In this document: positions 26,672 through 52,561 of the stretch, piece after piece
Position numbering within the stretch: position 1 is the first letter of the stretch
Layout of the letters: every line of letters starts with the position of its first letter
Notes under the pieces: model-generated
Told to the model about the DNA's origin: nothing
Databases searched by the model: none
The model's input: only the letters and a program-made list of their open reading frames with translations
Position numbers and translations under genes: made by a program
Source: Yuukianura sp. NJ FZ-2021
Taxonomy: Eukaryota
DNA: 64,000 bases
NCBI GenBank assembly: GCA_046563655.1
Contig: CM102283.1
Coordinates: 5,890,001-5,954,000, forward strand
Reading direction: 5' to 3'

Positions 26672-27473
26672 TGTTGTGATAAATCTACGATTAAGACTGA
26701 CTTTTTGCATTAACGGTATGTTGGTCTACTTAACACGACGAAATTTTTTAAGTTTCTGATCGATTGAACTTAGTTTTTGTAGAGTTGCTTTGCCTGTTTG
26801 GCTACTCGTCCTTGAATTTCTATTAGCATTTGAATGACCAATTAATAATGGAACTGTTTTAAGTTCACTTAAAACAGTTTTCTGCTTAAAAATTTAAAAT
26901 CCCAAGCAAAAAATGTTGGTATACTAGAATTGGCTTTTTAGAATAATACGACAAAGGAAAAATTCTGAGACGATAAAATGTTAATCCTTCGATTGTATTT
27001 TTTTTTCAAAATTCTGGAAATGGGTAGTGTAAACCGACGTAAATCGAATTCCATTTATGGTGTTTATTGATTTTCACAGAAAGTAAATAATTAACAAGTT
27101 TTTATCAATAGCCTATCAATCTAACACAAAATACCCCCGAAATTTTGGAAATTGTGATGAGAATGGTTATAAATTTAGGAAAATCTTAACATGCCTGGTA
27201 TTTTTCGTGCCACAATGCTGTGAGCTGAAGGTAGAAGAATATTTCCGAGCGTATGGCATGAGGGGCAGCACAGACGACTTTACTTATGCCATCGTGGCTA
27301 CGTCCACCGTAACCGACGCTTCCGGGTTAGGCGTTTTTTTTTCGATTAAATGAGGGTTTTCTAAAATGGCATTCTGAATTCATTGAAAATTTTGAAAAAT
27401 CTGTGTGAAACACTAGTGGTTATTATTTATGAATACTCAAATGTGAGGAATAAATTCAAAGTGTGAGAAATAT

Positions 27474-29322: not shown

Positions 29323-29622
29323 TGTCCTGACAAATTGACAAATAATTCCCTACAGTTAAGAGATGTTTCTGTTTCTTTACAGTGCGGATATCTTCGTGCA
29401 CTTAACACGACTACAATTTTTTTGTGTTTCTAGCGACACGAAAGTCATAACATACTTTTTTAAGGTACTTAAATTTCCTTGCCTCTTCATTTAATTAGCT
29501 CTTCGCCGTCCGATTCCTTCTGAAATTTGTATGACAACTTAACAAAAGAAAACTTTAAAGCGAAGTTTTCTCCTTAGATATTAATGTACAGAAATCGCAA
29601 ACATAAAGAAGGTTGGGAATTT

Positions 29623-30315: not shown

Positions 30316-31550
30316 GGGAATTTACTTCTTACTTATGTTAGCAGCATGGGACGTGTATGGTAAAATACAGACATGAAATGTTAAAGTTCCTCGGAAGCTA
30401 TTTTGCTTGGGCGGAATGTTTGACTTTTCTTTTTCCAAAATAGTAGTGTGTTACAACTTAACGTGGCTGTAATTGCATTTCTAATGTTTATTGATTTTTA
30501 CGAAACACAAATAATCAAGAACATCAAGAACTTCAGCAAGAACTTAACTAGCATCGAATTAACCTGGACTTAAGCAAACCTTAGTCTTCTTCTTTGCGAT
30601 GACTTTGATGAGGATTAAGGGTGTACGCGGAAGGAATGCTTTTCCATGCAGTAAAAATTAATTTTGTTCCATTACCGCCAATAGACAGACATAATGCACA
30701 CATACAAAGTTGATTTAAAAAGTTGCTCTCAGTACTTAAGAACCCCGTTTCTAATCCGGGCTGACGTAAGTTCAATTTGCGTTTTGTGATGTCTACTGAT
30801 TTTAAGGCAAATAAATAATTAGCAACATGTCTTTAATATAATTCTATCCTAATACCGTACTGATCTACTTTGCAGAAATGCGAAAATCTGGCCAAATTTT
30901 CTAGAAAACCGTAATATAGCCTAACCAAAACCAACTCAAATGCATGCGAACTTAAAGTATTTTTCCATTCATGCAAACGATGATGTCAGAATTTTTCCAG
31001 TGCGTGTTTTTTTGTGTTATTTTTGGTTTACGTTATCTATCGTTCCACAGCCTTATACTAACATAACTGCCAAAACTCTCCACTTTAATTTTATGCAAAA
31101 CATTTATAAACGGATCATTTGGAGACACTTAATAAAAATTTCAGTTTAATTTAACAAAAAACTGTTTCTGTTTACATTAACATTGCATAAACATACAGTA
31201 AAATTTACTATGTATACATATACATACTATTTGAGACTTGAGTTATTCCCTAACCTACCCCAGCTTGGAGTATTTTCTAACGTACTCATCCTAATCTTTA
31301 CTACACCGCAAAACTAATATCTGTTAATCCCCTCCACAGTTTTAGTAATTGCCGCGTCGTCTGGTTGTTGATTAGTTTCATTAAGTGCGTCATTGCTCAC
31401 AAATGTGGTTGCAAAAGAAGCGTTAAGATTTCAGTTCACAGCCAAAATAACATCAAACTCTTACGTAAGACAATAAAATTCTTTAGGTTCATAAATTAAA
31501 TTTTTATGAAAATTTTATTTTAGTTTGATTTTTTTTAAAGTAGAATTACA

Positions 31551-32018
31551 ATGACCATGCGTCCTCAAATTGTGATTCGGAGTCCGATAAGTGCCAAGGA
31601 GTGGAACGATTATTTCTCACTTCGCTACGAAGTGTTGAGGCGCCCTCTAGGTCTTCCTGAAGGCAGTGAAAGACGTGATGACGAGCACAAGGCATTCCAC
31701 TTTGCAGCGTTTAGGGAAGAAGTCAATGAGATCATTGGAGTTGTACGGGTGAGTTTTATGGAAGAAGCGGAAAATCCGAATGAGACAATGCGCCTGCGCA
31801 TGGTGGCTGTCAAGCCTTGCGTCCAAGGAAATGGAGTTGGGAGGAAGTTGCTTCAGTTTGTGGAACAATTTGCAAGAAACCATGGAGTTACCAAAATGTA
31901 CGTCGATTCTCGTGACACTGCCGTAACATTTTATGAAGCCAATGGCTACACACTGCTCAGAAAGGTTTACGTCCTTTATGGCAAACTACAATACTACGCA
32001 ATGGAAAAGTTACTGTAA
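31551..32018 (+). CDS. GNAT-family N-acetyltransferase, bacterial YiiD/ElaA-like, intronless CDS
   Basis: YFSLRYEVLRRPLG..D....H, LRMVAV...QGNGVGRKLL (acetyl-CoA motif A), AVTFYEANGY. Confidence 0.88.
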   Translation: MTMRPQIVIRSPISAKEWNDYFSLRYEVLRRPLGLPEGSERRDDEHKAFHFAAFREEVNEIIGVVRVSFMEEAENPNETMRLRMVAVKPCVQGNGVGRKLLQFVEQFARNHGVTKMYVDSRDTAVTFYEANGYTLLRKVYVLYGKLQYYAMEKLL

Positions 32019-32463: not shown

Positions 32464-34118
32464 ATGGACACTGATACCATTCACCAAGCGAATATCCACA
32501 ATCTACCTCCAGAAGTAACTCAAAAATTTATAGTTAAACTACAATCAACACGGCTAACTTTAACTGTAAATTATTACATTTCCAGCTTCTGAACATGATC
32601 TTTGAGCACTCAGATGCTACTGCCCTTGCCAAAAACAGAAATGTTTGTGCCTACTGGCGCAATATCATCGAATCTCTGTTTACCACACAATTGGAAATGA
32701 CAAATCAAAACTGGGAAGCATTCGTGAAGTTGTCCACAGCATCCTGCATTCATCTCAAACTGACTGCCGTCCAGTTCCCAATATACACTGCTCCAGAATT
32801 CGCCGACTTCCTGTCTCGCGTCAACATTCTGGAATTGTCTGGATACATTCCAGAGTACAACGTCATCAACATTCTCAAAGCATGTCGCAAAATCCAGTCA
32901 CTCACTGTTCATCGTGTGTCAATCGACAGCAATCAAGATCTTCAAAATATCTTCATTGAAGACGATGATGACTATGTATTTGATTTGACGAAATTAAACG
33001 TCGGACTGCCAGTCAATGAGAATGATGACATGCTTGACGTGATTTACTATGCCGCGTATCTCCTCAAATTCAACTGCTTGAAGGAATTGAACCTCAGTGC
33101 GATGTTCCAATTGGAAAATGTTTTGCAACTGATTTTCGCGGGAATTTTTGAACCACTACCAGAAGAAAGCACAAATGACGTCTTCAAAATGATTTGGGAC
33201 TACCAAAATCAATCCCTCGGGCTCATTAACTTTGATTTTCAAAATGCCAATGTTCTGCGCAGGAAGCGACAAATGTTCATCAAATTCCACCCGTACGAAG
33301 ACGCACCAGAATCTCCGACGAGAGATTCGACCAATCAGAGCCCTCAAATCCTGGAATCATGTTTATTCCAACTTGAAGACTATGAAAGGAACCGTCAATG
33401 TACAGAAATGATGTTGCAAATTTTCGAAACGCAGAAGAAGATGAAGAATATGGTAATATGCTACAGGAATGACGAAGATTTGGAGCGAATTGAAAATATC
33501 ATCGAAACCAATTGTGCAACATTAGAGGAAATTGTGATCGAATCCCTTGAGCCAACGGAACAACATTTTCGTCTTTTGAGCTGCTCATGTTTTCGAACCT
33601 GTTTGACCTTAAAAGAACTAACACTTTGTTCACCAAATGAAAATCGGAAGGTCAAATTGCTTGACTTCTTGCTTCTTCCGACTTCTTTGGAAAAGTTGTC
33701 TCTCACTGGATTTATTCCAACTGGATCGTGGGAACTATTCGGCGGAGTCACCGAACTGCCGCAGTATCAGAACATGACTGAAGTGGAATTGGACGCCTTC
33801 CCTTGGTTCATTGTCGATGGAATTCCTCAAACAATTTTTGCAAACTTTCACTTCCGTTGGCTCATGAACTTGTTTCCAAAAATTGAAAAGCTGACTCTCA
33901 CTGGAATTCCAGTTGACATGCGGCCTTGGGCCACACGTCTTGGTGTGCCGAATATCCCGGAATCTGTTTCTCCTGAATTTGTGACGTGGTGTCGCCAGGG
34001 TGGAGGACACAACGTCAGAATCGATTCAATTCAAGTTTCTCGCCACGACTTCGTCCATCCACACGTACGTAACCGCGTCACGGTGCACGAAATTTTGATT
34101 CGGAAAAATCAAAGTTAA
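32464..34118 (+). CDS. F-box/LRR-like protein, copy 2 (exons 32464-32514, 32586-34118)
   Basis: Paralog of 22744-24416 with the same intron; NLPPELLNMIF..VCAYWR. Confidence 0.8.
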
Positions 34119-34470: not shown

Positions 34471-34750
34471 TTAAACTGACAAGTTTTCCCTAAATTCAGT
34501 AATCGTAGAAAACTTGAAAACATGCGCAGCATCAACAGCCATTCCAATCTCAGCATTTACTCGTTTCACCAATCGCATAGCCAACAAACTATTCCCGCCA
34601 GTATCAAAAAAAGTCAGCGTCCATTTCATACTCTGCAGTTCAAATTCAAAATGGGGTCAATTGATTCCCTATCGGGGTCATCTGTGGATGACTTTGACGT
34701 GACCTTGAGTAGTGCTTGGTGGAGTCCATTTCGGTCAATTTTTTCATTCA
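34471..34750 (-). pseudogene. Truncated NRPS thiolation-domain remnant with internal deletion
   Basis: Close match to 46888-47210 (..TGGNSLLAMRLV..FRENLSV*), lacking the IWKEILNLE segment. Confidence 0.85.
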
Positions 34751-35782
34751 AATAAACGCCCGGGCGTTTATATTAGAAGTTTTACGGTATGTATTATAGT
34801 TTACCTTGGGTGGTGCTTTCTTTAAAAAACTTTCTGCCGTTTATTCGTTAGTGCATAAAAAGTTTTAAATTAAATTCTATTTTCCTAACGTTTCAATTTT
34901 TTAAAAAATGCTGTAAAGTCATAAAACAAAAAAGTCCACTAGTAACTAGTTTTGGTAGAATTGTGAAATAGCTTTCATAAAACTGTGTAAAGAAACTTAT
35001 AGGTTTTCAGTTCGCGTTTTCTAAAAGTATGGTAAACAAAAAATATTAAATAGAAAAACTTTAATGGAACTTTTTTTAATTAGCAAAACCTCCAGATTTT
35101 ATCCTGCAAATCCACCAACTAAAAGTTAATAAAATTAACAATTTGCGAAATTGGAACCTTAGTCAAAACGTAAGAATGAGAAATATGGTATTTTGAAAAA
35201 TAATGTCTCCGTAGAGATGGAGGACGTAGTGTTTCATCTTCAGCGTAAAGTGAGGTCCAACTTTTCGGTAGTTTTGAGTTCCAGAATTTTCGATTGTACT
35301 TTCCCCAGTCCTGATCCGTTTGTTTTTTACTGCCAATTTCACAGCAAGCCGAAGAGTTTGAGTACAATGACACAGATAGTTCAACACACATTTTCAACGC
35401 AAATGAAATCGACAAGGTAAAGCATGTGTTGAACAAAATCACTAGACAACGGATTCAAAGGGATATTTAATTAGTTTGAACAGTGCGTATTGAAGCATAG
35501 TAAGCACAACGGAACTTGAATAAAGGCAGAATTCTACTATTCCGGAAAATATATCATTGGCCCAAGCACAGTACACTTGCTCAATGTTGTATCTACGCTG
35601 GATTGATTCACTGACTTCCAAGTAGTCGCTTTGTCCAGCATTATACTGCGCCATAAAGATGGATTTTGGAAGTTTCGGCAATTTAAATTTTAAGTTCACG
35701 TAAATATTCAAAATTTGGAATATTTCTAGTTACCTTAGTTGACGCATCCCAATTCGACTGGAGTTTACATACAGTAGAGAAC

Positions 35783-36073: not shown

Positions 36074-39000
36074 TTAAACTTTATAAGTTCCTGGGGGTGG
36101 GCGAATCCTCTTGGGATATCTTGGTTCCACTGGATCTGGTGGCGTAGCCTCGTCCTCAGCATCCAGTATTTCCACCGGGTCATCTCTCGTCTGTGCGTCT
36201 GCTACTGGGTCATCGGCGGTTTGAAGTGGTGTTGTGGGTGCATCTAGAATCTGGTCAAGGTGTCGCTTCATCTGTTCTCCATCAACATCCAGGATGAAGG
36301 TTACTGGTCCAACTTGTTTTGAAACAGTTCCAGAAGACCACTTCGGAGCATTTTTCGAAAATGTTTTGACCCACACCTTTTGTCCAACTTTGATTTCTCG
36401 AGTTCTCGTTCTCTTGTCATAATTTTCCTTTTGCTGGAATTGTGACTTTCCAACATGAGTTCGGACATCAGGGCGTACAAGGTCAAGAAGTGTCCTGAAT
36501 TTCCTTCCTTGTAAAAGTTCGGCTGGAGACAGTCCAGTAGTGGCATGAGGAGTGACTCGGTATGTAAAGAGAAAGCGTTGGAGAGCGAGAGTTTTGTCTC
36601 CTCCGGAAGCTTTCATTGCCTTTTTGAAAGTTTGAATAAACCTTTCAGCTTCTCCATTTGACCTCGGATGGTAAACAGAGCTTGTTGAGTGACGGATTCC
36701 GTTTGAATCGCAAAACGACTTGAATTCTTGTGATGTAAACTGTGAGCCATTGTCGCTAACAATTTGTTCCACAAGACCAAAACGGCAAATTGTTTCTCGA
36801 ATTTTTGAAATTACAATTGAACTAGTCGAATTGTTGTTTAAATCAAAAACTTCTGGCCATTTAGAATGAGCATCCGTTATGATTAGCCACATTCTATTTA
36901 AAAACGGACCAGCCAGGTCAATGTGAATCCGTTGCCATGGACGTTCCGGAAACTCCCATGGGTGCAGCGGGGCGCTTGGCGGGCTGTTTCGATTTTGAAC
37001 ACATTGTTCACAGCTTCTTGAAATTCCTTCAATTTCAGCATCTATTCCTGGCCACCACACGTATTGACGTGCAAGGGATTTCATTCTCACCATTCCAGTG
37101 TGAGTATAATGTAATTCATCCAAAATTTTCTTTTGAAATGAGGATGGGATGACAACTCGTATTCCCCACATTATTAGTCCATGAACTAATGTCAGTTCTT
37201 CCCTTCTGAGAAAGTAGGGGTAGAGTGGATCCGTCTTTCCCATAGTCGTTGGCCAACCGCCAATGATGTGACGGTAGACTGCTGAGAGAGTAGCGTCTCG
37301 ACTACTGACCCTCTCAATTGCTTTGGCAGTGACTGGCAGTACCTCCAGTGTTGAGCAGGCAACAAGGTTAACTTCAAAATCTATTTCTGGTGTCACTCCC
37401 TTGTCATCATTTGGCATAGGATGGCGGGAGAGAGCATCTGCATTTCCATGATCTGATGTTCTTCTGTACTGAATAGTGTAGTTGAATTGACTGAGATATA
37501 AACTCCATTTTTGAAGTCGGGTTGCAGCATAGGATGGCACTTGCGCAGTACGGCCTAATATTGACAGCAGCGGCTGATGATCAGTGATGACTGTGAACTC
37601 CCGTCCACAAAGATACTGAAAAAATTTCTTTACTCCAAAAATAATTCCAAGAGCTTCTTTTTCAATTTGTGAATACTTTCGTTCTGCTGGTGAAAGAACC
37701 TTGGAGGCGAAAGCGATTGGTCTTTCAGTGTTGTCTGGAAACCGATGAAATAAAACTACTCCAAGTCCATTTTGAGATGCGTCGCAGCTAATCCCAATTG
37801 GAGAAAGTGGAGAGTAGTGACACAGAACAGGGGCTGAAGAAAGTGCTTTCTTGATTTCCTCAAAGGAAAGTTGGCATTTGTTTGTCCATTTAAATTCTGC
37901 ATCTTTTCTTGTAAGTGCATAGAGATCAACACACTTATCAGCCAACTTGGGGATGAACTTCCCATAAAAATTCACAAGTCCAAGAAATGACTTAACTTCC
38001 GTAACAGTTTGAGGTTGCTGAATTGCTTTAACTGCTTTTACTTTCAGCGGCGATGTCATGATTCCATTCTTTGTAATAATGAACCCTAAATAGTCCAGTG
38101 ACTTTTGTAGAAATAAGCATTTCGTTTTTGAAAGTCGATAATTGAATTCACGCATGCGCTGAAATATTTTCTGTAAAGTAGAAAGATGATCCTGGTCAGT
38201 GACTCCAGTGCAGATGGAATCATCCATGAACGATCCGGACATCGGAATATTCTTCAGGAGTTTATCCATAAATTCCTGGAAAATAGCAGGAGACGATGCG
38301 ATTCCTTGCGGGAGAACTCTGTACCTATAGAGTCCACGATGAGTATTTATTACCATAAATGACTTACTCATGTCATCTAGCTCAATTTGGTGAAAGGCGT
38401 CTGGCCCATCCAGCCGAGAAAAAGTATTTCCTCCTGAAATCATTGACATCAGTTCGTCCACTCTCTGTAGTGGGTACTGAGTAATGTTGAGCTGAGAGTT
38501 GACAGTATGTTTGAAATCTCCTGTTATTCTTACTCTTCCATTTGCTTTTGGAACAACCACGAGGGGTGAAGCCCATTCAGAATGCTCGATTCGTTGAATG
38601 ACTCCGTTTTGTTCCATAACATCAAGTTCAGCGTCGACCTTGGCACGGAGAGCAAATGGTATTGGACGAGCCTTCAAAAATTTTGGCACAGCGTCGTCTT
38701 TTAAAATAACTTTGGCTTTGAATCCTTTGATCCAACCTTGAGGCGGAGAGAACACATCTTTGTACTGCTCTAGGAGCGTTTCTAAATTTAGCTTCTGTGG
38801 AGCAGCAAGCTGATAGCATTTAGAGTCCAGTGACAGCTTCAGTCCGAACAGATTAACTAAATCTCGGCCAAATAACGATTTGTTTCCTTTTGTAACTGAA
38901 AAGGAATATTGCTTGGATTGACCTTTGTACGTAAGGGTCACATCCACCTTTCCCAAGGGGCGAAAGGGTTGATCGGTGAAAGTTCTAAAAACATCAGAAC

Positions 39001-40060
39001 TGGTGTGGAGAGCAGGAGCTCCTAAATCCTTTCTCCAGAATTCTTCAGAGAGAAGACTCCTCTCACATCCACTGTCAAATTCCAAAGAGTGAGTAATTCC
39101 GTTAATTAACAATTGGATTTTGTATTCGGCCAATTTCCCAGCTCCAGTATAAATAGAATTGACATTAGCAGAAATCGAATCATCTTCTTCGACTGCTACG
39201 GTATGTGTGGATTTCTTTGTACTTCTGCAGCATTTTTTAAAATGACCTTTTTTTCCACACGCAAAACAAAGGACCTCTTTGTGTGGACAGTCCTTGGCTG
39301 TTTTGTGTGACGTAGAACCACAATTTGGGCAGGACGATCCTGATTGGTTGCGGGGCTGCTGACTCCTCCCTTGATTCTTTTGGCCCCTCCCACTTTGCGA
39401 GTTAACGTTAGTTTTAGGTGCGGGACCTGACTTACGGTTGAACTGCGTGAAGGGTCGTTGAAAAGTACGAGAGGTAGAAGCGTAGTTCACTCCAGAGCTA
39501 CTAGAACCGTTTGTCCTGAGGGTAGCGGTTCCAGCTTCAGCGACTTCTTGAGAGACTGCAATTTTTAAAGCATCTTCCAGGGATAGAGTATCTTCCAGAA
39601 TGAAGATTCTACGCTGGGCAGCTTCATTGGATAAACCAAAAATAAATTGATCTCGAAGTCGTTCGGATAAAGCGTTTTCAAATTTGCAAAACATGGCTAG
39701 TTTTCGTAATTCAGCCAAAAAATTTGCGCAGCTTTCTCCGGGCTGTTGTTTCCGGGCAGAAAATTTGAATCTCTCGGAAATAGCTTTGGGTGGTGGTTTG
39801 AAGTGAGCCTTTAGCACCTTGATTAGATCTTCTAATTTTTTCTCTAATGGCGGAGTTGGTGAAACCAAATTACTTAAGAGTGTGTACGTACCGATTCCAA
39901 TTTGAGACAGAAATGTGCCGACGCAGCGTTTCTGGTCCAATATAACTTGACTTTGGGCATCCAGTCCATTCGCTAGTAAATAGGATTTAAAGACGTTTAC
40001 CCAGTCGTCGAAGTCGTCTTTTGAAGAGTCGAAGGCAGGAAGCGTTCCGATTGTAGTCAT
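36074..40060 (-). CDS. Single-ORF Gag-Pol polyprotein (Gag with two CCHC knuckles, protease, RT, RNase H, integrase)
   Basis: CPNCGSTSH..C and CFACGKKGH....C; FDSG protease; LPQG..FMDD RT; CDAS..YSQIEKEAL..TDHQPL RNase H; HHCC plus IHIDLAGP..SDNGSQF..NGEAER integrase; first ATG at 40060. Confidence 0.95.
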   Translation of the reverse strand: MTTIGTLPAFDSSKDDFDDWVNVFKSYLLANGLDAQSQVILDQKRCVGTFLSQIGIGTYTLLSNLVSPTPPLEKKLEDLIKVLKAHFKPPPKAISERFKFSARKQQPGESCANFLAELRKLAMFCKFENALSERLRDQFIFGLSNEAAQRRIFILEDTLSLEDALKIAVSQEVAEAGTATLRTNGSSSSGVNYASTSRTFQRPFTQFNRKSGPAPKTNVNSQSGRGQKNQGRSQQPRNQSGSSCPNCGSTSHKTAKDCPHKEVLCFACGKKGHFKKCCRSTKKSTHTVAVEEDDSISANVNSIYTGAGKLAEYKIQLLINGITHSLEFDSGCERSLLSEEFWRKDLGAPALHTSSDVFRTFTDQPFRPLGKVDVTLTYKGQSKQYSFSVTKGNKSLFGRDLVNLFGLKLSLDSKCYQLAAPQKLNLETLLEQYKDVFSPPQGWIKGFKAKVILKDDAVPKFLKARPIPFALRAKVDAELDVMEQNGVIQRIEHSEWASPLVVVPKANGRVRITGDFKHTVNSQLNITQYPLQRVDELMSMISGGNTFSRLDGPDAFHQIELDDMSKSFMVINTHRGLYRYRVLPQGIASSPAIFQEFMDKLLKNIPMSGSFMDDSICTGVTDQDHLSTLQKIFQRMREFNYRLSKTKCLFLQKSLDYLGFIITKNGIMTSPLKVKAVKAIQQPQTVTEVKSFLGLVNFYGKFIPKLADKCVDLYALTRKDAEFKWTNKCQLSFEEIKKALSSAPVLCHYSPLSPIGISCDASQNGLGVVLFHRFPDNTERPIAFASKVLSPAERKYSQIEKEALGIIFGVKKFFQYLCGREFTVITDHQPLLSILGRTAQVPSYAATRLQKWSLYLSQFNYTIQYRRTSDHGNADALSRHPMPNDDKGVTPEIDFEVNLVACSTLEVLPVTAKAIERVSSRDATLSAVYRHIIGGWPTTMGKTDPLYPYFLRREELTLVHGLIMWGIRVVIPSSFQKKILDELHYTHTGMVRMKSLARQYVWWPGIDAEIEGISRSCEQCVQNRNSPPSAPLHPWEFPERPWQRIHIDLAGPFLNRMWLIITDAHSKWPEVFDLNNNSTSSIVISKIRETICRFGLVEQIVSDNGSQFTSQEFKSFCDSNGIRHSTSSVYHPRSNGEAERFIQTFKKAMKASGGDKTLALQRFLFTYRVTPHATTGLSPAELLQGRKFRTLLDLVRPDVRTHVGKSQFQQKENYDKRTRTREIKVGQKVWVKTFSKNAPKWSSGTVSKQVGPVTFILDVDGEQMKRHLDQILDAPTTPLQTADDPVADAQTRDDPVEILDAEDEATPPDPVEPRYPKRIRPPPGTYKV

Positions 40061-40292
40061 CTTGTTTCCGGGTTGACCAATAGGCTGAAGTTGCGGAAAT
40101 GGACTGCTACCAGTTGCCAGGATGAAATCGTTGATGAAATCGTTTAGAATTGGGTCACTGATGAAATCGGTGAGCAATTTTGTCCGTCGTGTGAGCTCCT
40201 CAAAGTATTCGGCTTCGTCAAATTCTGAATCAGAGTCAAACTGATCCAGCGTTGCAATTGGGAATCGTAGCTTTCACTCTCGTCGCCAGAAA

Positions 40293-40528: not shown

Positions 40529-40732
40529 AGAACAGAGTGAAAACGTATGGATACAGAATACGCCTCCTAAAAACGAAAAACATCCCACAACTGTCCCGCT
40601 TACGAACCCTCCGTGGTATATGATGCACTGAAAAATTTGAAGCACAAATTTTGAAATACTTTCCAAATTTTGATAAGGGAATTCAAAATGTGGTCAATTG
40701 ATTTCTGCTTAGAATCGGTTAGGTTAGGCGAG

Positions 40733-41500
40733 CGACCTTGACATGACCTTGATGGTGATGGCGTTGGAGGTCAATTTCGGACAATTTTTCCAATGAAATT
40801 TAGCGGCATTTCTTCCAGTTGTACCAATCTTGAGAGAATCATATATCCTGGCAGAACAGTTCGACTGTGATTCAAAACATCTTCTTCACAGTCCTGTTCC
40901 ATGATTGGTCCATTTTTAATAACAAAGTAGCAAATCAGCATGGTTTGTTCGGATTGTTCTAAGTGTGTAGCCACAACGACACTTTGAGTGACTCCTGGGA
41001 ATGACCGAATGACACTTCCGATTTCTTCTAGCTCAACTCAGTATCCTCGGATTTTGATTTGATGGTCTTGTCTTCCTGTGGATTCCATTCGAGAACTGGA
41101 CAGGCATTTGAACAAGTCGCCCGTTTTGAACAAAACGGCATGCGACCCTTCACGTTTGTCTTCTGGCGTTTGAAACGGATTTGAAATAAACTGCTCCCGC
41201 GTTAGACTATCGTTGTTCAAATATCCACGAGCCAATCCGAGCCGGAAACCGACAATCCTCCAATCTCCTCGATTCCTGCAAGCTGGTTTGGCGTCGTAGT
41301 GCTGACCATGTAGCATCGTTTGTTGTGCGCAGGCGTTCTGAAACGACGTATAGCCTTTTCAAAGTAAACTTTTTGATGCTGGACACAAAGGGATACCTCA
41401 AAATTTCCAAAAATTTTGAAAACTGCTGCCTGGGGAGCCATGGCCTTGAACTGTGGAAAAGTCTCCACTGTTAATGATTCTCCACCAATGCCAATTCGTT
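40733..41500 (-). pseudogene. NRPS adenylation-domain C-terminal fragment, pseudogene
   Basis: Matches 47143-47912 of the intact gene; in-frame TGA in GY*VELEE and frameshifts. Confidence 0.9.
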
Positions 41501-41866: not shown

Positions 41867-43514
41867 ATGAACACTGAAGATGAGACCACTCACAAATCAA
41901 ACATACACAACCTGCCACCAGAAGTACTTCAAAAATTTCTAGTTCAACTTCAATCAACAAGATATACTTTAACTTTCATTTATTACATTTCAGATACTGA
42001 GCATGATCTTTGAGCACTCAGATGATACTGCCATTGCGCAAAACCGCACTGTGTGTGCCTACTGGCGCAACATCATCGAATCTCAGTACACGATCCAATT
42101 GGAAATGACCAATGAAAACTGGGAAGCATTCGTCAAGTTGACCAAAGCATCCTACATTCATCTCAAGCTGACAGACGTCCAGTTCCCAATATACAGTGCT
42201 CCAGAATTCAACAACTTTCTGTCACGCGTCAACATTTTGGAAATAACTGGGTTCATTCCAGTGTACAATGTCGTCAACATCCTCACAGCTTGTCGCAAAA
42301 TGCAGTCACTCACTGTTCATCATGTGTCAATCGGCCAGAACCATCAAGGGCTTCGAAACACAAGTGAAAACAAGGATGACCTTGTGTTTGATTTGACGAA
42401 ATTGAACGTTGGACTGCCAGACGATGAAGATGACCTGCTTGACGTTATTTACTATGCCGCGTATCTACTCAAATTCGACTGCTTGGATGAATTGAACCTC
42501 TGTTCATTGTTCCAAGTGGGAAACGTTTTGCAATTGATTTTCGCGGGAATTTTTGAACCGCTACCAGACGAAGACCTGACAAATGACGTCATCGAAATGA
42601 TTCGTGACAACCAACCGTCCCTGGAACTCATCAGTTTTAATTTTGAACACGACGATGACGAGAAACCTCAAATGTTCATCAAATTCCATCCGCACGCAGA
42701 CGAACCTGAATCTCCTTCCACCAATCAACACCGTCAAATCCTGGAATCATGTTTGTTCAATTTTGAAGACTATGAGCAGAGTCACCAATGCGCTGAAATG
42801 ATTTTGCAAATTTTTGAAACGCAGTCGAAGATGAAGAATTTGGTAATTTGCTACAGGAATGACGTAGATTTGGTGAGAATTGAAACTATCATCGAAAACA
42901 ACTGTGAAACATTGGAGGGAATTACAATCGAATCACTTGAGCCAGTAGACCAAACTTTTCGTCTTTTGAGCTGCTCTTGTTTTCGAACCTGTTTGACCTT
43001 AAAAGAACTAACACTTTGTTCACCCAATGAAAATCGGAAGATCAAATTGCTTGACTTCTTGCTTCTTCCTACTTCTTTGAACAAGTTGTCTCTGACGGGA
43101 TTTACTGTAACTGGATCGTGGGAATCGCTTGGCGGAGTCACTGAACCGTCGCAGTATTTGAACATTACTGAAGTGGAATTGGACGCCTGCCCTTGGTTCA
43201 TTTTCGATGGGAGTAATGAAACAATTTTTTCGAACATGCACTTCCGTTGGCTCCTGAACTTGTTTCCAAAAATTCGAAAGCTGACTCTCACTGGAATTCG
43301 ACTTGACAGAGTCATGTCGTCTTGGGATGCACGTAACCTTGGTATGCCGAACATTCCGGACTCCATTTCTCCGGAATTTGTGACGTGGTGCGGCCAGGGT
43401 GGAGGACACAATGCCAGAATCGATTCAGTTGAAACTTCCCACTACGATTCCGTCTTTCCACACTTACTTCAGCGCACGGTGCACGAAATTGTGATTCGGA
43501 AAGATCAAAATTAA
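41867..43514 (+). CDS. F-box/LRR-like protein, copy 3 (exons 41867-41923, 41994-43514)
   Basis: Paralog with the same intron; NLPPEILSMIF..VCAYWR. Confidence 0.8.
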
Positions 43515-43887: not shown

Positions 43888-44170
43888 TTAAACTGACAGA
43901 TTTTCTCTGAATTCAGTAATCGTAGAAAACCTGAAAACGTGTGCAGCATCAACTGAGACTCCCATCTCAGCATTTGCTCGTTCCACCAACCCCATAGCCA
44001 GCAAACTGTTCCCGCCAGTTTCGAAAAAGTCAGCGTCCATTTCATACTCTTCAGTGGCCTCCAAGTTCAAGATTTCTTTCCAAATTTTGACGAGAGAATT
44101 CAAAATGGGGTGAATTGATTTCCCGTTAGGGTCATGGTTGGAGTCCATTTCGATCAATTTTTTTATTCAA
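43888..44170 (-). pseudogene. NRPS thiolation (PCP) domain remnant; retains an 86-aa ATG-started ORF (44148-43888)
   Basis: IWKEILNL..DFFETGGNSLLAMGLV..FRENLSV*; same 5' breakpoint sequence as the 34750 remnant. Confidence 0.8.
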
Positions 44171-44591: not shown

Positions 44592-46288
44592 TCAAAATGT
44601 AAGAATAAGAAAAATTGTATTTTGAAAAATGATGTCTCCGAAGAGATGCAGAACGTAGTGTTTCGTCTTCAGCGTAAAGTGAGGTCCAACTTTTATGAAA
44701 AGCGGTAGTTTTGAGTTCCAGAATTTTCGATTGTACTTTCCCCAGTCCTGATCCGTTTGTTTTTTACTGCCAATTTTACAGCAAGCCGTAGAATTTGAGT
44801 ACAATGACACAGATAGTTCAACACACATTTTCAACGCAAATGAAATCGACAAGGTAAAGCATGTGTTGAACAAAATCACTAGAAAAACGGATTGAAAGGG
44901 ATATTTAATTAGTTTGAACAGTGCGTATAGAAGCATAGTGAGCACAACGGAACTTGAATAAAGGCAGAATTCTACTATTCCGGAAAATGTATCGTTGGCC
45001 CAAGCACAGTACACTTGCTCAATGTTGTATCTACGTTGGACTTGATTCACTGACTTCCAAGTAGTCGCTACGTCCAGAATTATACTGCGACATTAACAAA
45101 GAAGGATTTTGGAAATTTTGGGATTTTACTTTTTAAGTTCAGGTTAATATTCAAAATTTGGAATATTTCTAGTTACCTTAGTTGACGCATCCCAAGTCGA
45201 CTGGAGTTTACATACAGTAGAGAACAGAGTGAAAACGTATGGATAGAGAATACGCCTCCTAAAAACGAAAAGCATCCCAGAACTGTCAAGCTTACGAATC
45301 CTCCGTGGTACATGATGTACTGAAAAATTTGTGTTCCTTCTGGTTCATTTCCTACGAGTCTTGCGTATACTTGAAACGGAAGTTGTGTCAGTTCATTGCT
45401 TGTAAAGTAAAAGAAAGTCAACGTTCCAGGGGTAAGTAAGTAGCGATACATAGTGAACAAAAAATTTATTAGTTGCAACCCGCTCGCAAATTTGATAACT
45501 TCCGAGTCACCCGTTGTTTCTGTAAATAAGTAAATCTGATTTCAATTTTACGGGAAAATACTAGAACGTAAAAATTTGTTATAATTTACAACAGATAAAT
45601 TATATTATATTTATAACTAATAATAATAAATAAATTATACTTATAACTTATAAATACTAAAAAAAAAGTTTGTTCGACTACATCTAATGAAATGTTTCGA
45701 TGTCCTGAAAAAAAAATTCGGAGAAAGCAGTTTCACAGCTATTTTGAACCTAACTACTATTCCCAACGGTATTCCATAAAAAATACATGACGAAGACGAT
45801 TGCATGAACCTGGGGCTAAGCCCCAACGCGAACATGAAGTATTCTGGTCCTCGAAAACAAAGTGTTGCATGTGTTGCATAGTTTGAATATATAAATATTT
45901 GTAATAATTTCAAATTACCTGCAAGTATATAAATTTTGAGGTATGTGGCCACAATACCGACAATGTCGTTCATATGACTCAAGTACCAAATTTGATTTCC
46001 AATTAACAGAGTTTGGACTGCAATCATTGCAATGAACGTCATCATTAACGTTGGTTTCTCTACATATGGGATTCCAAATACCGCACATACGAATATGACA
46101 CTCAGGTTCACACTTATGCTCAGCAAAATTGTAGCCCCAACGATGTTACGTTTAATCTTCGGGCGTTTGGATTCGACAATGCGGTAGCAAGATTTGGTAT
46201 CTTTTTCAATATAAAAAGTACAACAATGCCAAAAGAATGCAGCGTGAAATGTGTGCAATACATGTTCCAAATACCTTGAATTGGTCAT
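44592..46288 (-). CDS. 7TM chemoreceptor-like protein, copy 4 (3 exons)
   Basis: Intact paralog of copies 1 and 2 with the same exon structure. Confidence 0.7.
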
Positions 46289-46887
46289 TGTTGTAATTTT
46301 GTTATAATAACTTTACTACAGTAACTCTTACTTTTACACTGATACCTCGTTATGAATATGATTGTATACAGAGTCAGGACTTCAGTTTCTGTTTTTTTAT
46401 GGAACAGAATAGATATTTTTTAAACCTCTCCGTGTCATTTTTGAAATGGTTAATTTGTAGGAGCAATTAACAATAAAAAATACTTTATAGCGAAACCTAA
46501 AATTTGACATGTGAAAGTCATTAAAGAACTTTGTTGTTAAAAGTCTACAAAATTTTGGCAATTAAAAAAACTCAATTTTTTGTTATTTTTATGGGCTGTA
46601 ATAAACAGTCATGTCAAATTGTCAAATTTCAACCATATCCAGATTTTTTTTTAGAATATATTTATTTTATTAAATTTTAATTTAATTAAGTTGAACATTT
46701 TGCTTATTGAGAAACAACAAAGTTGGTAAATTAACAACAAAGGTTAGTTTTAATCAACAAAATACTTGTAGAAAGAGTGCTTTTTTGTAGGTGCTTGAAT
46801 AAAGTACGTCAAAACTTTACAACTGGATTTTAAATATTATAGAAAGGACCTAACGACTTTTTAGATTCAGTTGAAAAATTCTGAATT

Positions 46888-48783
46888 TCAAACTGACAGG
46901 TTCTCCCTAAATTCAGTAATCGTAGAAAACTTGAAAACATGCGCAGCATCAACAGCAACTCCAATCTCAGCATTTACTCGTTCCACCAATCGCATAGCCA
47001 ACAAACTGTTCCCGCCAGTTTCAAAAAAGTCAGCGTCCATTTCATACTCTTCAGTTGCCTCCAAGTTCAAGATTTCTTTCCAAATTTTGATCAGAGAATT
47101 CAAAATGGGGTCAACTGATTCCCTCTTGGGGTCATCTGTGGATGACCTTGACATGACCTTGAGTGGTGGTGGCGGTGGAAGTCCATTTCGATCAATTTTT
47201 CCATTGAAATTTAGCGGCATTTCTTCCAGTTGAACTAATCTAGAGGGAATCATATATTCTGGCAGAACAGTTCGGAGGTGATTCAAAACAACTTCTTCAG
47301 AGTCCTGTTCCATCATTGGTCCATTTTTAATAACAAAGTAGCCAATCAGCATGGTTTGTTCGGATTGTTCCAAGTTTGTAGCCACAACGACACTTTGAGT
47401 GACTCCTGGGAATGACCGAATGACACTTCCGATTTCTTCTAGCTCAACTCGGTATCCTCGGATTTTGATTTGATGGTCTTGTCTTCCTGTGGACTCCATT
47501 CGAGAACTGGACAGGCATTTGAACAAGTCGCCCGTTTTGAACAAAACGGCATGAGACCCTTCACTTTTGTCTTCTGGCGTTTGAAATGGATTTGAAATAA
47601 ACCGCTCCCGCGTTAGACTTTCGTTGTTCAAATATCCACGAGCCAATCCTCGTCCAGAAACGGCCAATTCTCCTATTTCTCCAATTCCTGCAAGCTGGTT
47701 TGGTGTTGTAGTGCTGAGCAAGTAGCATCGTTTGTTGTGCGCAGGCGTTCCGAAACGGCGTATGTCCTTTTCGGAGTCAACTTTTTGATGCTGGACACAA
47801 ATTGAGCCTTCAGAATTTCCAAAAATGTTGAAAACTGCTGCTTGGGGAGCCATGGCCTTGAACTGTCGAAAAGTTTCTACTGTTAGTGCTTCTCCACCAA
47901 TGGCAATTCGTTTCAGTGAAGGAATTCGGGTCAAGTCAAGTCGAGCGACAAGTGACGGCGTACCGTCAATGTGTGTCACTCCATGACGGTACATGTAGTC
48001 ATAAAAATTTTCATTCTCAAATATCATTGACGGCCGGACGATAAGCAGTGGAAATCCATTTGACAGAGCCGTTAAAAACGGAACCGTGGCGGCATTGAAG
48101 ACGTAGTTGAGAAAGTGAACCACAACTTCCGAATCACCCGGTTTGATACCGTACCGGGATCGGTAGTCGATACATTCTGTGATCAGTGCCTCTCGTGTGA
48201 CAAGTACGCCTTTCGGTTTTCCGGTTGTACCCGAAGTGTAGAGGATGTGAGACAAGTGTATGTCGGTTGTTCCAACGGATTCGGGTGGGGTCACGGTCAC
48301 ATTTGGCGGGAGTTGAATTCCACTTAAATTCAAAATCTCACGTTCCCCCATGTATGTCTTGCTGAAATTGAAGTTGGTGTCGTCAGTGAGCATGAGCACT
48401 GCGGCGGTATCTTCCAGAATAAACTGGACTCTTTGGGCAGGGTACTTGGGGTCAATGGCCACATAGGCTACGCCGGCCTTAAGCAACGCAAGAAGTGCTA
48501 CGACCATGACCTCACTTCGTTCCAAACAAAGCGCCACAACAATATCTGGTTTTCGCTTGTCTCCCAATTGGTCAGCAATCAAACGCGCAACGTGATTGGC
48601 TGAGCGCTCAAGGTCACGGTAGGTCAGCGATTTTTCTTCAAAAATTACAGCAATATTTTCTGGAAATTGGGCAGCCTGAAGGTCAAATACAATCGGCACT
48701 GTTGAATTCGGAGCGTAGTGGCGTACTGGCCCTGTGACGATGCAGCCTTCATCGTCAATCTTTTCTAAATATTGGCCGACCAT
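46888..48783 (-). CDS. Stand-alone NRPS-like adenylation-thiolation (A-T) didomain protein, 631 aa, intronless CDS
   Basis: A1 LTYRDL, A2 LKAGVAYVAID, A3 ILYTSGTTGKPKG, A6 GELAVSGRGLARGYL, A7 FKTGDL, A8 GRQDHQIKIRGYRVELEEI, A9 LPEYMIP, A10 NGKIDR; PCP DFFETGGNSL; no C, TE or R domain. Confidence 0.93.
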   Translation of the reverse strand: MVGQYLEKIDDEGCIVTGPVRHYAPNSTVPIVFDLQAAQFPENIAVIFEEKSLTYRDLERSANHVARLIADQLGDKRKPDIVVALCLERSEVMVVALLALLKAGVAYVAIDPKYPAQRVQFILEDTAAVLMLTDDTNFNFSKTYMGEREILNLSGIQLPPNVTVTPPESVGTTDIHLSHILYTSGTTGKPKGVLVTREALITECIDYRSRYGIKPGDSEVVVHFLNYVFNAATVPFLTALSNGFPLLIVRPSMIFENENFYDYMYRHGVTHIDGTPSLVARLDLTRIPSLKRIAIGGEALTVETFRQFKAMAPQAAVFNIFGNSEGSICVQHQKVDSEKDIRRFGTPAHNKRCYLLSTTTPNQLAGIGEIGELAVSGRGLARGYLNNESLTRERFISNPFQTPEDKSEGSHAVLFKTGDLFKCLSSSRMESTGRQDHQIKIRGYRVELEEIGSVIRSFPGVTQSVVVATNLEQSEQTMLIGYFVIKNGPMMEQDSEEVVLNHLRTVLPEYMIPSRLVQLEEMPLNFNGKIDRNGLPPPPPLKVMSRSSTDDPKRESVDPILNSLIKIWKEILNLEATEEYEMDADFFETGGNSLLAMRLVERVNAEIGVAVDAAHVFKFSTITEFRENLSV

Positions 48784-51593
48784 TCTGGAAATACATAAGT
48801 TTTACTTTTAACGTAAACAAACTTTTAATTACTTCATAATAAATGGTGAATTCATAAATATTTTATAAATTAAATACTTCAAATTTTAGTTTTAAAAAAC
48901 TCACTTGTTCCCCTACGTGTTTATAGCTGCAACTTAGAAGTTTCACTGGAAATGTTACAGTAATTAGCTCTCGTAATCGGAGTCGTTATGTGTATTTCTG
49001 TATTCCGCGGAGTAGTAAATACGTGGACGTCATACAGTAGCCAAACTGGTTAGGATGCAAGTTTTCAGTTTTTCAGTAATGTTGTAGCTGTCGACTGGTA
49101 AATGTGACGAAAGAATTCCGTCGACAGAGAATTGACCAAAAGTTGTAATGAACAAGATTTTTAATATAATCTACACTACTCTGCTCAATACAAAATATTG
49201 AATGTCTCTTCTAAGCTTGCTGAAACAAACTGAAACAAAAGCGTCCAACTTTTCTAAATAAAAACTTCACATACAAGGTGATGAAACAGGTAAAGTTTTC
49301 TAGGATTCCCAAGAAAAGAAAAAAGAATGGACAGAACAAATCCTTTTAAGAAAAGTAAAACAATATGCTAGTATTCGTAAGCCTAAAATCCCAAAGGCTA
49401 GACTCAAATTTTGTTATCCAAATAACAAAAGGTAAGGAATTTAAAAATAGGGGAATTTTGAAACTTTTGTTCGCGTTTGGAAATGGTCACATTTTTTGTG
49501 GTTGGAAATGCCAAAAAAAATTGTAATTTCATAATTTTAAACTAAAAGTCCAATCTAGCGTAGGACCCTATCTAAGGTTTTGTCCAATTAGGTATAACTA
49601 TATTCCTACGTTCTGCCTAATGTTTAAATTCGTTTCGACAAAATGGTGTCGCTCTAATTCACTGTAAGTCTGGAGTCATTGAATAATAGAGTAAGACTAA
49701 TTACTTTTCAAACGAGAAAATGATGACCGGATTGATAATTTTTAATGGGAATGATGATGCACTCCTGTTTTATGTGTAAATTTTCACTTTGAGAGCAATT
49801 CATTTTTTTTCTTTTGAATTCCACATTACGACGGGTTTTAAAGAGAAAAAAAACTTCTAAAAGTTGGAATCAACTGGAATAGATTTGCAAATTTTTAAGC
49901 GAGTTGAATTGGAATTTGCAAATTACGTCATAAACCACACCTTACACGTGTTGATTGCAGTTAGGTAGCAGTGATGCTTTATATTTTTTATGCTTCATCC
50001 AGCACAGGCAGTTAGTATCCAACGCCTCGTGTCTTTCATTTCAGAAAAAAATGGCCAGAGTTATATAAAACAGCATTTTTATGTTGCGCAGGGGCATGTT
50101 TCATAATAAAGTTTGTTTTTGAATCACAAAAATTAATGGAAGAGCAAGATAATTTTGAAAATTTTCTTGTTCTTCTGTTTTACATTTTTTTTTGTGAATG
50201 AAGATCACCACGGGTTTGGTAATTTTGAAAAAGGCGCCGAAGCGTGTAGAAGTTCCATTGGCCCACGCTCTCTTATTCTTTATATTCGTCACAGTCTCTT
50301 TCCACGAACATGGCGAACAGTCTCTGTCATTTTCTGTTTTAAAATTTTCTTTTTAGTACAAAATTTGAAATTTAAAATTTAGAACACAAGGAACAAGTAG
50401 TTCATGAATGGAGTTTTCTTTGTGAATGGAATAAGAGAAAAGTGGTGTAATTTTGAAGAACCACGCGTAAAGTACGTTTTGATTGTTTTCTGGAGATTTA
50501 TGACAGTGACGTGACGGATTTCTGAAACAGATGAGGCAGGAAGAAGCTTCAACCAAATTGGTGTTCGTGCTTCAGGGAAGCGTAGGTGGTAAAACTTGCT
50601 TCTTCCAAAATTTTAAAAAAGGAGTAAAAAAAAAAACTTCAGTTTCAAAACCATTAAAAATTGGTACACGGCCAGTCCGTCGTCAGTCGTCTCACCAATT
50701 TTCGGTGTAACCGTGTCCACGATTTCAATTTTTTGTTAAAATTTTTTTTTTGGAAAAGTCAAACAAAAAAACTTTTGGTTTCCCAAAAGTACTTTTCGTG
50801 TTTTGCAACTTCTCGCACTTCATATCTGCACGACCTAAGAAAATCACTTTCATTCATTTCTGAAAAAACGGGTTTTTCGAAATTCTAAAAATAATTTCTA
50901 CAATTTCTCCGTTTAAGTTTTGATTTTTCGAAGTGTGGGGTGTCGACGCGGAAAAAAAACTAAAAGCGGTGCTTTTGAAAAGAAGTGACATGGACATTGA
51001 TCCGGATAAATGACACCCCCTTGTTGCTTTCTCTGGATCATATAGTTTCATCGACACTTTGTAAGAACGAGAGGGGCCCTTCAAAGGTGTCAAAGGGCCC
51101 CATACGAAAAGAAGTACTTTTGGAGAATAAAAGCACTTTTCAAGAAAAATTTCATAAAGTGGACTTGAATTTTTGAAAGTTTCAAAGGGACTCACTCTTC
51201 ATCAACCCTACTCAATTACGAGTGAGTTTATGCGGAAACTTAACAATCAAAAGGGACATCGAAGGGAGTAGTGAACCGCTAAGTTCAAAGTTCGTTTGTA
51301 AATCACACGTTGAGATACAAATCACTAAAAGCCTGTACCTGACAGAGGTGTTAATCTGTTTTAAAATCTACCACAGATCCCTGTAATGCCGAGTTGCCCT
51401 CAATCCAACTTCAAAGCTCAGAGTCTTTTTTTCAAAAAGAAAGAAATCTTCAAATTTCATAAATTTATTAAAAAATAAAGTTTTTCAAAGATGAAACAAT
51501 GTTGAGCTATGATTCTCTACGACCGCCGACCGGTGAGGTCTAAATAGTTTGAGATTGTCATTTTATTTACAAACTCAGCGTTGAAAAATAGTA

Positions 51594-51815: not shown

Positions 51816-52561
51816 TCACCAAGGTCGCCAATAGAATTCGGAGTCTTCGTCTGAAATGAGACTGTGATCTGTTGATTCTGATTGTGAGTTTTGATTGTGA
51901 TTGAACTGAGATTCTGATTTGATAATGACTGATGATTTTTTGACAATAAATACAAGATTTGCTGGGTCATGGTCATCCATTGCGATTGCATTGAAGGAAC
52001 TTGAGCTACATGACTCCAACTGCGCATCAGTTCTGCGCAAATTGTGCAGAGCTTGGAGATGCTTTACGGTCAGTTCCAAAATGTCGGCTTTCTCCAGTTT
52101 GGCTGGTCGGACGGCTGAACTACTGCTTTTGGTATATTTCTGTAAGAAGGATAAACAAGGCTTTCTTTACTCATCCATTCTTAAAAAGCGCTGTTTTTTT
52201 TTTAAATTTTTGGGAAAATTTTAGTTATGTTTTGGTGTGGTAGTAAAAATTTTACCTGTTGCTTCCCCTCAGTTCCTGTTGAATTGATTGTTGGACTCGA
52301 TTCCAGTAGAATCCGTTTCAGTTCGTTCAAACTGTCGTTGATTCTTGCTCTACGCTTTTTCTCCATCAACGGTTTCCGAATCTACCAAAGAAAAGCAAAG
52401 TTGAATTTCTAAATCATGAAAGTAATTTTTTTTTCTTCCTATTTTGATATTTCCTTCAATTCTGTTTCTTTTAAATCTAATTTTACTAAACTTGGTTTCT
52501 AGCAATTTAAGAATTCCTAAATCCTAACCTTTCTACTTTCTGAATTTTTCGTTTGCTTCAT
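51816..52561 (-). CDS. Hairy/E(spl) (HES) family bHLH repressor, ~160 aa; exons 52561-52529, 52381-52256, 52139-51816
   Basis: Spliced MKQTKNSESRK|IRKPLMEKKRRARINDSLNELK..AKLEKADILELTVKHL; ends in WRPW. Confidence 0.9.

Follow-up and report, generated by a model that had tools for sequence, protein, structure and literature searches.

A stand-alone adenylation–thiolation gene of bacterial type in the genome of Yuukianura sp., with asparagine at two conserved pocket positions

Within a stretch of 64,000 nucleotides of Yuukianura sp. NJ FZ-2021 (GenBank assembly GCA_046563655.1, contig CM102283.1, positions 5,890,001 to 5,954,000 of the forward strand; referred to below as the window), positions 46888..48783 of the minus strand hold an intact, intron-free coding sequence (CDS) of 631 codons plus stop, whose product, P0001, consists of a nonribosomal peptide synthetase (NRPS) adenylation (A) domain and a thiolation or carrier (T) domain. 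The protein carries two pocket substitutions that are conserved in a relative, has its closest affinities with bacterial-type proteins, and lies among animal genes; it is very probably a real, intact, animal-resident gene of bacterial NRPS type. The explanation preferred here, held at about even confidence, is that this is a functional gene of bacterial NRPS ancestry, horizontally acquired by the springtail lineage and domesticated, whose product would load a non-alpha-amino acid and work with a partner in trans. Since the adenylation and thiolation motifs are all intact, a working loader is the default expectation.

The open reading frame (ORF) runs from stop to stop over 46888..48801 on the minus strand, with the ATG at 48783 and a TGA at 46888-46890, and a run of 631 stop-free codons has a chance probability of about 4e-16 given the base composition of the CDS. 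Beyond the frame and its translation, the gene is defined by three Pfam domains, all on the minus strand: the adenylation core (AMP-binding, 47611..48669, residues 39-391, 3e-62), inside which motifs A1-A6 lie; the AMP-binding_C subdomain (47179..47418, residues 456-535), with the codon of the A10 lysine, Lys529, at 47197-47199; and a peptidyl carrier protein (PCP, or T) domain (PP-binding, PF00550, 46891..47076, residues 570-631, 2e-11), in which the phosphopantetheine serine, Ser593 (codon 47005-47007), stands in the GGNS of FFETGGNSLLA. The NCBIfam amino-acid adenylation model TIGR01733 (ANL superfamily) also matches, its 326 bits exceeding the cutoff of 317.4. Pfam recognizes nothing beyond these three domains in P0001, including no ketoreductase (KR) domain, and the protein ends 0-5 residues past the carrier domain. 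Core motifs A1-A10 are complete, the equivalent of the A10 residue Lys517 included, and read LTYRDL, LKAGVAYVAIDP, YTSGTTGKPKG, GELAVSGRGLARGYL, FKTGDL, GRQDHQIKIRGYRVE, LPEYMIP and NGKIDR; the strings HFLNYVFNAATV, FNIFGNSEGS, GRQDHQIKIRGYRVELEEI, NFNGKIDR and FFETGGNSLLA were likewise read directly from the translation. In a survey of 457 aligned A domains from 237 proteins, P0001 matches the column consensus at A3, A6, A7, A8, A9, A10 and the carrier serine, and both translation and consensus thereby bear out the original prediction that A3, A7, A8, the A10 lysine and the carrier serine are intact.

The protein had also been described as a stand-alone A-T unit without a release domain, and this description holds: only A and T are found by Pfam, and partner domains are missing from the window by tblastn. 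A set of 240 NRPS homologues detected no condensation (C), epimerization (E), thioesterase (TE) or reductase (R) sequence in the 64 kb, NRPS-like DNA occurring only at copies of the A-T gene, and the minus strand immediately downstream (46313-46887) contains no ORF of at least 60 amino acids. A hidden coding exon up- or downstream was considered and rejected, as the N-terminus resembles that of bacterial A-T proteins (motif A1 begins at residue 52, against about 58 in the bacterial protein P0010) and nothing NRPS-like lies nearby. The CDS is surrounded by what look like a short intron in the 5' untranslated region (5'UTR) and eukaryotic signals, all on the minus strand and read from the sequence: a predicted 5'UTR intron of 120 nt (48785..48904; CAA/GTGAGT ... 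TTTCCAG/A-ATG), a TATAAA 16 nt above it (48920-48925), and an ATTAAA, a possible polyadenylation signal, about 135 nt past the stop (46748..46753).

The pocket residues were mapped by anchoring on A4, the GGE stretch, A5 and A10, which reproduced for P0001 the code originally proposed, NAVDAGIICK. Over the 457 domains the same columns return DFWNIGMVHK and DLYNLSLIWK, the Thr and Cys codes given in passages of PMC12283262, and because these known codes are recovered, the column mapping is considered sound and the code of P0001 confirmed. Both anomalies on which the earlier reading had been built, NYVFNAATV at A4 and NIFGNSE at A5, are present in the translation. Asn230 (codon AAT, 48094..48096, minus strand) corresponds to GrsA Asp235, giving FN rather than FD at A4, and HMMER pairs it with the aspartates of FSFDGS and YIFDIS in two linear gramicidin synthase modules; Asn323 (codon AAT, 47815..47817, minus strand) takes the place of the A5 proline, giving NIFGNSE instead of NxYGPTE. 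Position 235 is occupied by Asp in 441 of the 457 domains, by Val in six, Gly in three, Ser in three and Ala in one, and by Asn in two, which are P0001 and its close relative P0002. As for A5, the proline is found in 375 domains, and Asn in its place again occurs in this pair alone, so the double change is confined to P0001 and P0002 and absent from the other 455 domains. P0002, a partial protein of 402 amino acids from a Logan contig, is 58% identical to P0001 in alignment A1 and keeps nine of the ten code residues (NAVDAGILCK) together with the GNSE motif.

What these positions do in other enzymes is described in passages of PMC11253843: Asp235 holds the alpha-amino group of the substrate, as the original prediction had stated, and Lys517 holds the carboxylate; hydroxy-acid A domains have Ala or Gly at 235; and StsA, the sole solved keto-acid A domain, has Ile at 235 and Met for the A5 proline, beside which a backbone carbonyl contacts the substrate. 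According to the same passages, restoration of the proline in StsA (M415P) abolished activity, and replacement of the corresponding proline of LgrA (P483M/A) raised keto-acid activation. Within the survey, the A5 proline is missing from all 13 domains that lack Asp235 (P0001 and P0002 excluded), against 67 of the 441 that retain it (Fisher 6.7e-11); seven of the 13 have close codes (VDW.., VDF.., GDW..), with A5 reading GSSE in six and GLSE in one. In this light, the A4 and A5 changes of P0001 appear to belong together, each being one half of a known signature of domains whose substrates lack a standard alpha-amino group. With both Asp235 and the A5 proline lost, P0001 most probably accepts something other than an ordinary alpha-amino acid, and loading of a non-alpha-amino acid, taken as a claim of its own, is put at an even balance. 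The repurposing for such a substrate that had been proposed from the outset is thus plausible from the A4 and A5 changes, the substrate class itself being presumptive.

A third residue contributes to the character of the predicted pocket. Asp273 (codon 47965..47967, minus strand), at code position 278, is acidic, lies deep in the pocket and is kept in P0002. Together with the polar Asn replacements, it suggests a substrate that either bears a hydrogen-bonding keto or hydroxy group at C-alpha or has a basic or polar group deeper in the pocket; the more likely substrates would be alpha-keto and alpha-hydroxy acids and acids whose polar or basic group sits elsewhere. Asp278 belongs to the code cluster of Arg domains in passages of PMC12283262, and P0001 matches that cluster at five of ten positions, a likeness too weak to name a substrate.

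Comparison with characterized non-amino-acid domains, again from passages of PMC11253843, shows both shared and differing features. With keto- and hydroxy-acid A domains P0001 shares the loss of both the Asp235 carboxylate and the A5 proline, but their residue at 235 is Ile, Ala or Gly and their proline is replaced by Met, whereas P0001 has polar Asn at both, and keto-acid modules carry an embedded KR domain that P0001 lacks. With the aryl-acid enzymes DhbE and EntE it shares Asn at the 235 equivalent, in agreement with what had been claimed for DhbE earlier, and in DhbE this Asn235 hydrogen-bonds a substrate hydroxyl. However, aryl-acid A domains have a strictly conserved A5 unlike NxYGPTE, whereas the NIFGNSE of P0001 is NxYGPTE-like, and unlike DhbE and EntE, P0001 passes TIGR01733, has a fused carrier domain and finds its best matches exclusively among amino-acid-type modules.

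In an alternative reading, an ordinary or N-substituted alpha-amino acid is still loaded, with Asn230 as a weaker hydrogen-bond partner of the amine and the A5 change incidental. In its favour, TIGR01733 is passed, the relatives of P0001 are all amino-acid-type modules, McyG activates Phe with Val at 235 (passages of PMC11253843), and the A5 proline is also missing from the 67 Asp235 domains mentioned above. Set against this, the proline is kept in none of the 13 other non-Asp domains, the Asn-plus-Asn change occurs only in this pair among 457 domains, and passages of PMC12283262 and PMC8788816 describe Asp235 as all but invariant in domains for alpha-amino acids. On balance, amino-acid loading is considered unlikely.

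If P0001 does load a non-alpha-amino acid, its presumed activity would, by analogy with related enzymes, begin with adenylation of a carboxylic acid with ATP by the A domain, followed by transfer of the acid to the phosphopantetheine arm of the protein's own carrier domain, which a host phosphopantetheinyl transferase (PPTase) would have attached. A free nucleophile or a separate enzyme would then have to take over or release the thioester; off-loading in trans, and with it the presumed need for a partner, follows from the lack of a C, TE or R domain in the protein or the 64 kb. Ebony and AASDH offer a partial parallel, as they too place an A-T core in an animal genome and require a host PPTase. 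Ebony continues into an amine-selecting C-terminal domain and AASDH into PQQ repeats, whereas P0001 ends at its carrier domain; the same difference separates it from fungal Lys2, which has a C-terminal reductase and whose model, TIGR03443, gives P0001 198 bits against a cutoff of 1030. Neither Ebony nor AASDH occurs among the best 120 near-length matches, and no direct comparison with either was made.

Whether the frame is maintained can be judged against further copies of the gene, three of which were located in the window by tblastn of P0001. The first is a pseudogene fragment (40645..41498, minus strand; residues 292-574, 90% DNA identity) with one frameshift and two in-frame stops, which at its 3' end is joined to part of a seven-transmembrane (7TM)-like gene and abuts a retrotransposon. 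The second comprises the carrier domain only (43888..44166, minus strand; residues 542-631, 80% amino-acid identity), retains GGNS in a 92-codon open frame, and differs from the 3' end of the A-T gene at 86% DNA identity without gaps, by 18 synonymous to 20 non-synonymous changes; it may represent either a carrier gene in its own right or a fragment of recent origin. The third is a decayed carrier-domain fragment with frameshifts (34474..34751, minus strand; residues 526-631).

The 90%-identical fragment has accumulated three disabling lesions in 283 codons, compared with none in the 631 codons of the focal gene, in which about 4.3% of random substitutions would make a stop. The two differ by 35 synonymous and 46 non-synonymous changes, as expected from one constrained and one free branch. 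Additional comparisons come from contig pieces (unitig sets, many of them paralogous) aligned to the CDS, for which 40 of 362 differences were listed. Run X5, from a second organism, has pieces over 47024-47251, 47228-47552, 48151-48447 and 48625-48957, or about 1.2 kb of the CDS, each with 4-14 differences and no gaps inside the CDS; among the differences listed for runs X1 and X5, five fall in the CDS (four of them seen in X5), namely four synonymous changes and one V557I. In the run of organism A, unitigs with 1-nt deletions at 47653 and 47823 of the CDS make up a minority of the depth, and depth is several-fold higher at the carrier-domain end than over the remainder of the gene, which points to additional copies in other parts of the genome of organism A. 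Intactness, conservation in P0002 and the mostly synonymous differences are consistent with purifying selection on the gene.

The same material bears on the possibility that P0001 is a decaying or inactive NRPS relic whose frame is open by chance and whose D235N and P325N changes are loss-of-function hits. Three copies counted as decayed in the same window, the lack of partner domains by tblastn and the minority deletions in organism A would fit such a history. The contrast between 631 open codons and three lesions in 283, the retention of all catalytic motifs, the recurrence of the same odd pocket in a relative of only 58% identity, and the synonymous nature of four of the five listed CDS differences argue for a maintained gene instead, and decay is regarded as rather improbable.

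Relatives of P0001 were sought among 5.8 billion proteins, as the best 120 near-length matches and, separately, among proteins of 1,106-3,155 amino acids, length ranges that both exclude full ACV synthetase (ACVS; about 3,700 amino acids, springtail ACVS included). Apart from P0002, at 55% identity, the best near-length matches are bacterial C-A-T or A-T proteins of 33-37% identity, with a few from Mortierellomycota; all named entries among the 120 are bacterial or fungal and none is metazoan, which upholds the original view of a non-animal type. Among the longer proteins identity reaches at most 36%, and a search of representative proteins returned only megasynthases of 5,100-7,900 amino acids at 30-36% identity, with no near relatives. 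A-T proteins of about 600 amino acids are common in bacteria (Atlas). Metagenome scans with P0001 and with alignment A1, both using the pattern HFLNYVFN and both of limited sensitivity, revealed no bacterial donor with Asn235, the pattern giving 40 and 538 matches, respectively, and no relatives.

The phylogenetic position was examined with FastTree over the 457 domains and with IQ-TREE over 55 rows and 508 columns (LG+C20+F+G4 with posterior mean site frequencies, PMSF), the rows being 38 top-scoring domains, 14 random others, P0002 and two further modules of P0185. The latter, a partial protein of 2871 amino acids from Modicella reniformis with the layout A-T-C-A-T-C-A, we take to be ACVS-like from its architecture and from pocket residues that match the code signatures of the three ACVS modules. 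As a separate observation, residues 4-104 of P0185 match a Crinkler effector N-terminal domain, which reflects either an unusual fusion or a faulty gene model. In the IQ-TREE analysis, P0001 and P0002 form a pair (100/100) that is sister to the bacterial A-T proteins P0010 and P0012 (Streptomyces sp.; 91/92), the three P0185 modules form a clade of their own with the pair outside it (98/94), and all of these fall within one 13-row group (90/70).

The bacterial split-module A-T proteins P0012, P0010 and a Nonomuraea orthologue share with P0001 the A-T layout, at 639-642 amino acids, and an NPFQT...-type insertion before A7; P0001 differs in that they keep Asp235 and GPTE with the code DGVNVGEISK, and identity is about 35%. 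The Nonomuraea orthologue (71% identical to P0012; locus L002) lies directly after an NRPS of 3317 amino acids with four C, three A and three T domains and is followed by a class IV aminotransferase. Its position directly after an NRPS indicates that the bacterial relatives are split-off last modules of assembly lines, whereas P0001 has no such neighbour in the window.

An origin from ACVS, as first proposed, is not demonstrated by these results. In its specific form, the proposal is that a module-2-like unit was excised from the springtail lineage's own horizontally acquired ACVS and then repurposed. Springtails are reported to carry ACVS (passages of PMC10531068), as the original prediction had stated; FastTree places the Cys-type module 2 of P0185 beside the query clade (0.979), the pair and the ACVS-like modules share the 13-row group, and forcing P0001 and P0002 into a clade with those modules costs only 9.3 lnL and is not rejected (approximately unbiased, AU, test p 0.095). 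Nevertheless, the P0185 modules are monophyletic without the pair, which joins bacterial A-T proteins instead, and identity to P0185 modules 2, 3 and 1 is 34, 32 and 30%, against 37% to plain bacterial modules. The motifs NYVF, GTPS and NPFQT...TGDL, initially held to be ACVS-like, do occur in P0185 module 2 but also in the bacterial proteins P0003, P0005 and P0010; the codes of P0001 and module 2 differ, with only I330 and K517 in common. ACVS itself is a trimodular C*AT-CAT-CATETe enzyme in passages of PMC8788816, whereas P0001 is a single A-T. The sequence relations are best described as those of a bacterial-type A-T protein from the same broad subgroup as the ACVS modules, and excision of a module from ACVS is doubtful.

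Several considerations weigh against the preferred explanation of a domesticated gene that loads a non-alpha-amino acid. At the level of the pocket, the residues of P0001 are assigned by alignment, Asn differs from the Ile, Val, Ala and Gly of characterized keto- and hydroxy-acid domains, and Asn230 could still hydrogen-bond an amino group; furthermore, the 13-of-13 association disregards kinship, seven of the 13 domains having similar codes and three sharing one code. At the level of conservation, P0002 may be a paralogue rather than an orthologue, and the count of 35 to 46 changes indicates only moderate constraint. With respect to origin and expression, P0001/P0002 and P0010/P0012 stand on long branches and the latter two have deviant composition, which makes their sister relation moderate evidence only, and the signals for an intron, a promoter and polyadenylation are predictions from the sequence.

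The genomic setting is that of an animal chromosome. Intron-bearing animal genes flank P0001, and the window also holds an ETS-domain gene, a P450, a GH20 hexosaminidase exon and a PDZ protein (Pfam). The ETS-domain exon (16878-17597, minus strand) and a bHLH-like exon (51816-52166, minus strand; KLEKADILELTVKHLQ; no Pfam match at the threshold used), which presumably belongs to the Hairy/E(spl) type, are ordinary animal regulators that flank the region. An intact Ty3/gypsy-type gag-pol ORF of 1399 amino acids (36074-40273, minus strand) marks a retrotransposon inserted in a tandem array, beside the A-T pseudogene fragment and a truncated 7TM-like gene. The flanks of P0001 have 26-32% GC, and the third-codon-position GC content (GC3) of the gene, 0.44, lies within the host-gene range of 0.37-0.57. 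Contamination was rejected because animal genes flank P0001, a retrotransposon and pseudogene copies lie nearby, and the composition resembles that of the host. Duplication, pseudogenization, the retrotransposon hit and host-like composition together imply long residence of the A-T gene in animal DNA.

The tandem array itself comprises a family of proteins of about 515 amino acids and a three-exon family of hydrophobic 7TM-like proteins, found at 22854-24416, 32538-34118 and 41973-43514 on the plus strand and at 25009-26725, 27474-29349 and 44592-46312 on the minus strand. Neither family has Pfam matches, and both are lineage-specific. Their alternation with remnants of the A-T gene indicates that the whole block was segmentally duplicated. 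An intron-free ORF for a GNAT acetyltransferase of 159 amino acids (31539-32018, plus strand) also lies in this part of the window, and bears a weak NCBIfam likeness, below cutoffs, to the bacterial ArsN2 and RimI models.

At some distance from P0001, two exons (13941-14963 and 15150-16049, minus strand) encode a bacterial-type aromatic amino-acid lyase of the MIO type (Pfam Lyase_aromatic). It shares 64-67% identity with betaproteobacterial HAL/PAL/TAL enzymes and is similarly close to three proteins of Folsomia candida that carry the annotation histidine ammonia-lyase. These three are the best named eukaryotic relatives of exon 13941-14963, at 65-67% identity, and corroborate the springtail-like nature of the host that had been assumed. 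Among enzymes of solved structure, the lyase comes nearest to Nostoc PAL, a Rhodobacter-type TAL and AdmH, an aminomutase, and not to Pseudomonas histidase; its selectivity-switch residues are F-H (LVRFHCTG). The gene would seem to be a second case of horizontal acquisition, older and common to springtails; a literature search, judged from listings, found no description of this lyase.

The lyase raises one further possibility, namely that the A-T protein is its functional partner 31 kb away and loads its product, an aryl-acrylic acid such as coumarate or cinnamate, or a beta-aryl amino acid if the enzyme is a mutase: two bacterial-type genes do share one 64-kb window, the nearest solved relatives of the lyase are PAL, TAL and AdmH, and lyase products without an alpha-amino group would fit the loss of Asp235, but about ten unrelated genes lie between the two, the ETS factor included, no close Folsomia candida A-T orthologue appears among the best 120 matches despite three lyase copies in that species, and clustering of cooperating genes is not expected in animals, all of which makes the partnership very unlikely. 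The fuller scheme of a springtail pathway assembled from separately acquired bacterial genes, in which the lyase would supply an aryl acid and the re-tooled A-T protein would load it for an animal partner, is put just as low; if true, it would yield an animal-made phenolic or depsi-type defence compound.

NRPS genes are rare in animals, and the ones catalogued from springtails are mainly ACVS and beta-lactam clusters. Passages of PMC10531068 list, besides ACVS, further uncharacterised NRPS regions, three in Folsomia candida and ten rows in Holacanthella duospinosa, one of them judged to be fungal contamination. In a literature search, judged from listings and passages, no A-T gene with this pocket and no paper on the signature strings was found. 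What is new here is accordingly a horizontally acquired springtail NRPS-type gene with an unreported pocket, which adds to the known repertoire a minimal animal A-T gene with a double pocket substitution absent from 455 related domains. The joint loss of Asp235 and the A5 proline may be a general rule for non-alpha-amino substrates, and could improve substrate predictors. If inactive, P0001 documents the decay of a transferred NRPS module; if active, it provides a compact, easily expressed test case for the control of alpha-amino versus non-amino selectivity by Asp235 and the A5 proline, and would point to undescribed springtail chemistry.

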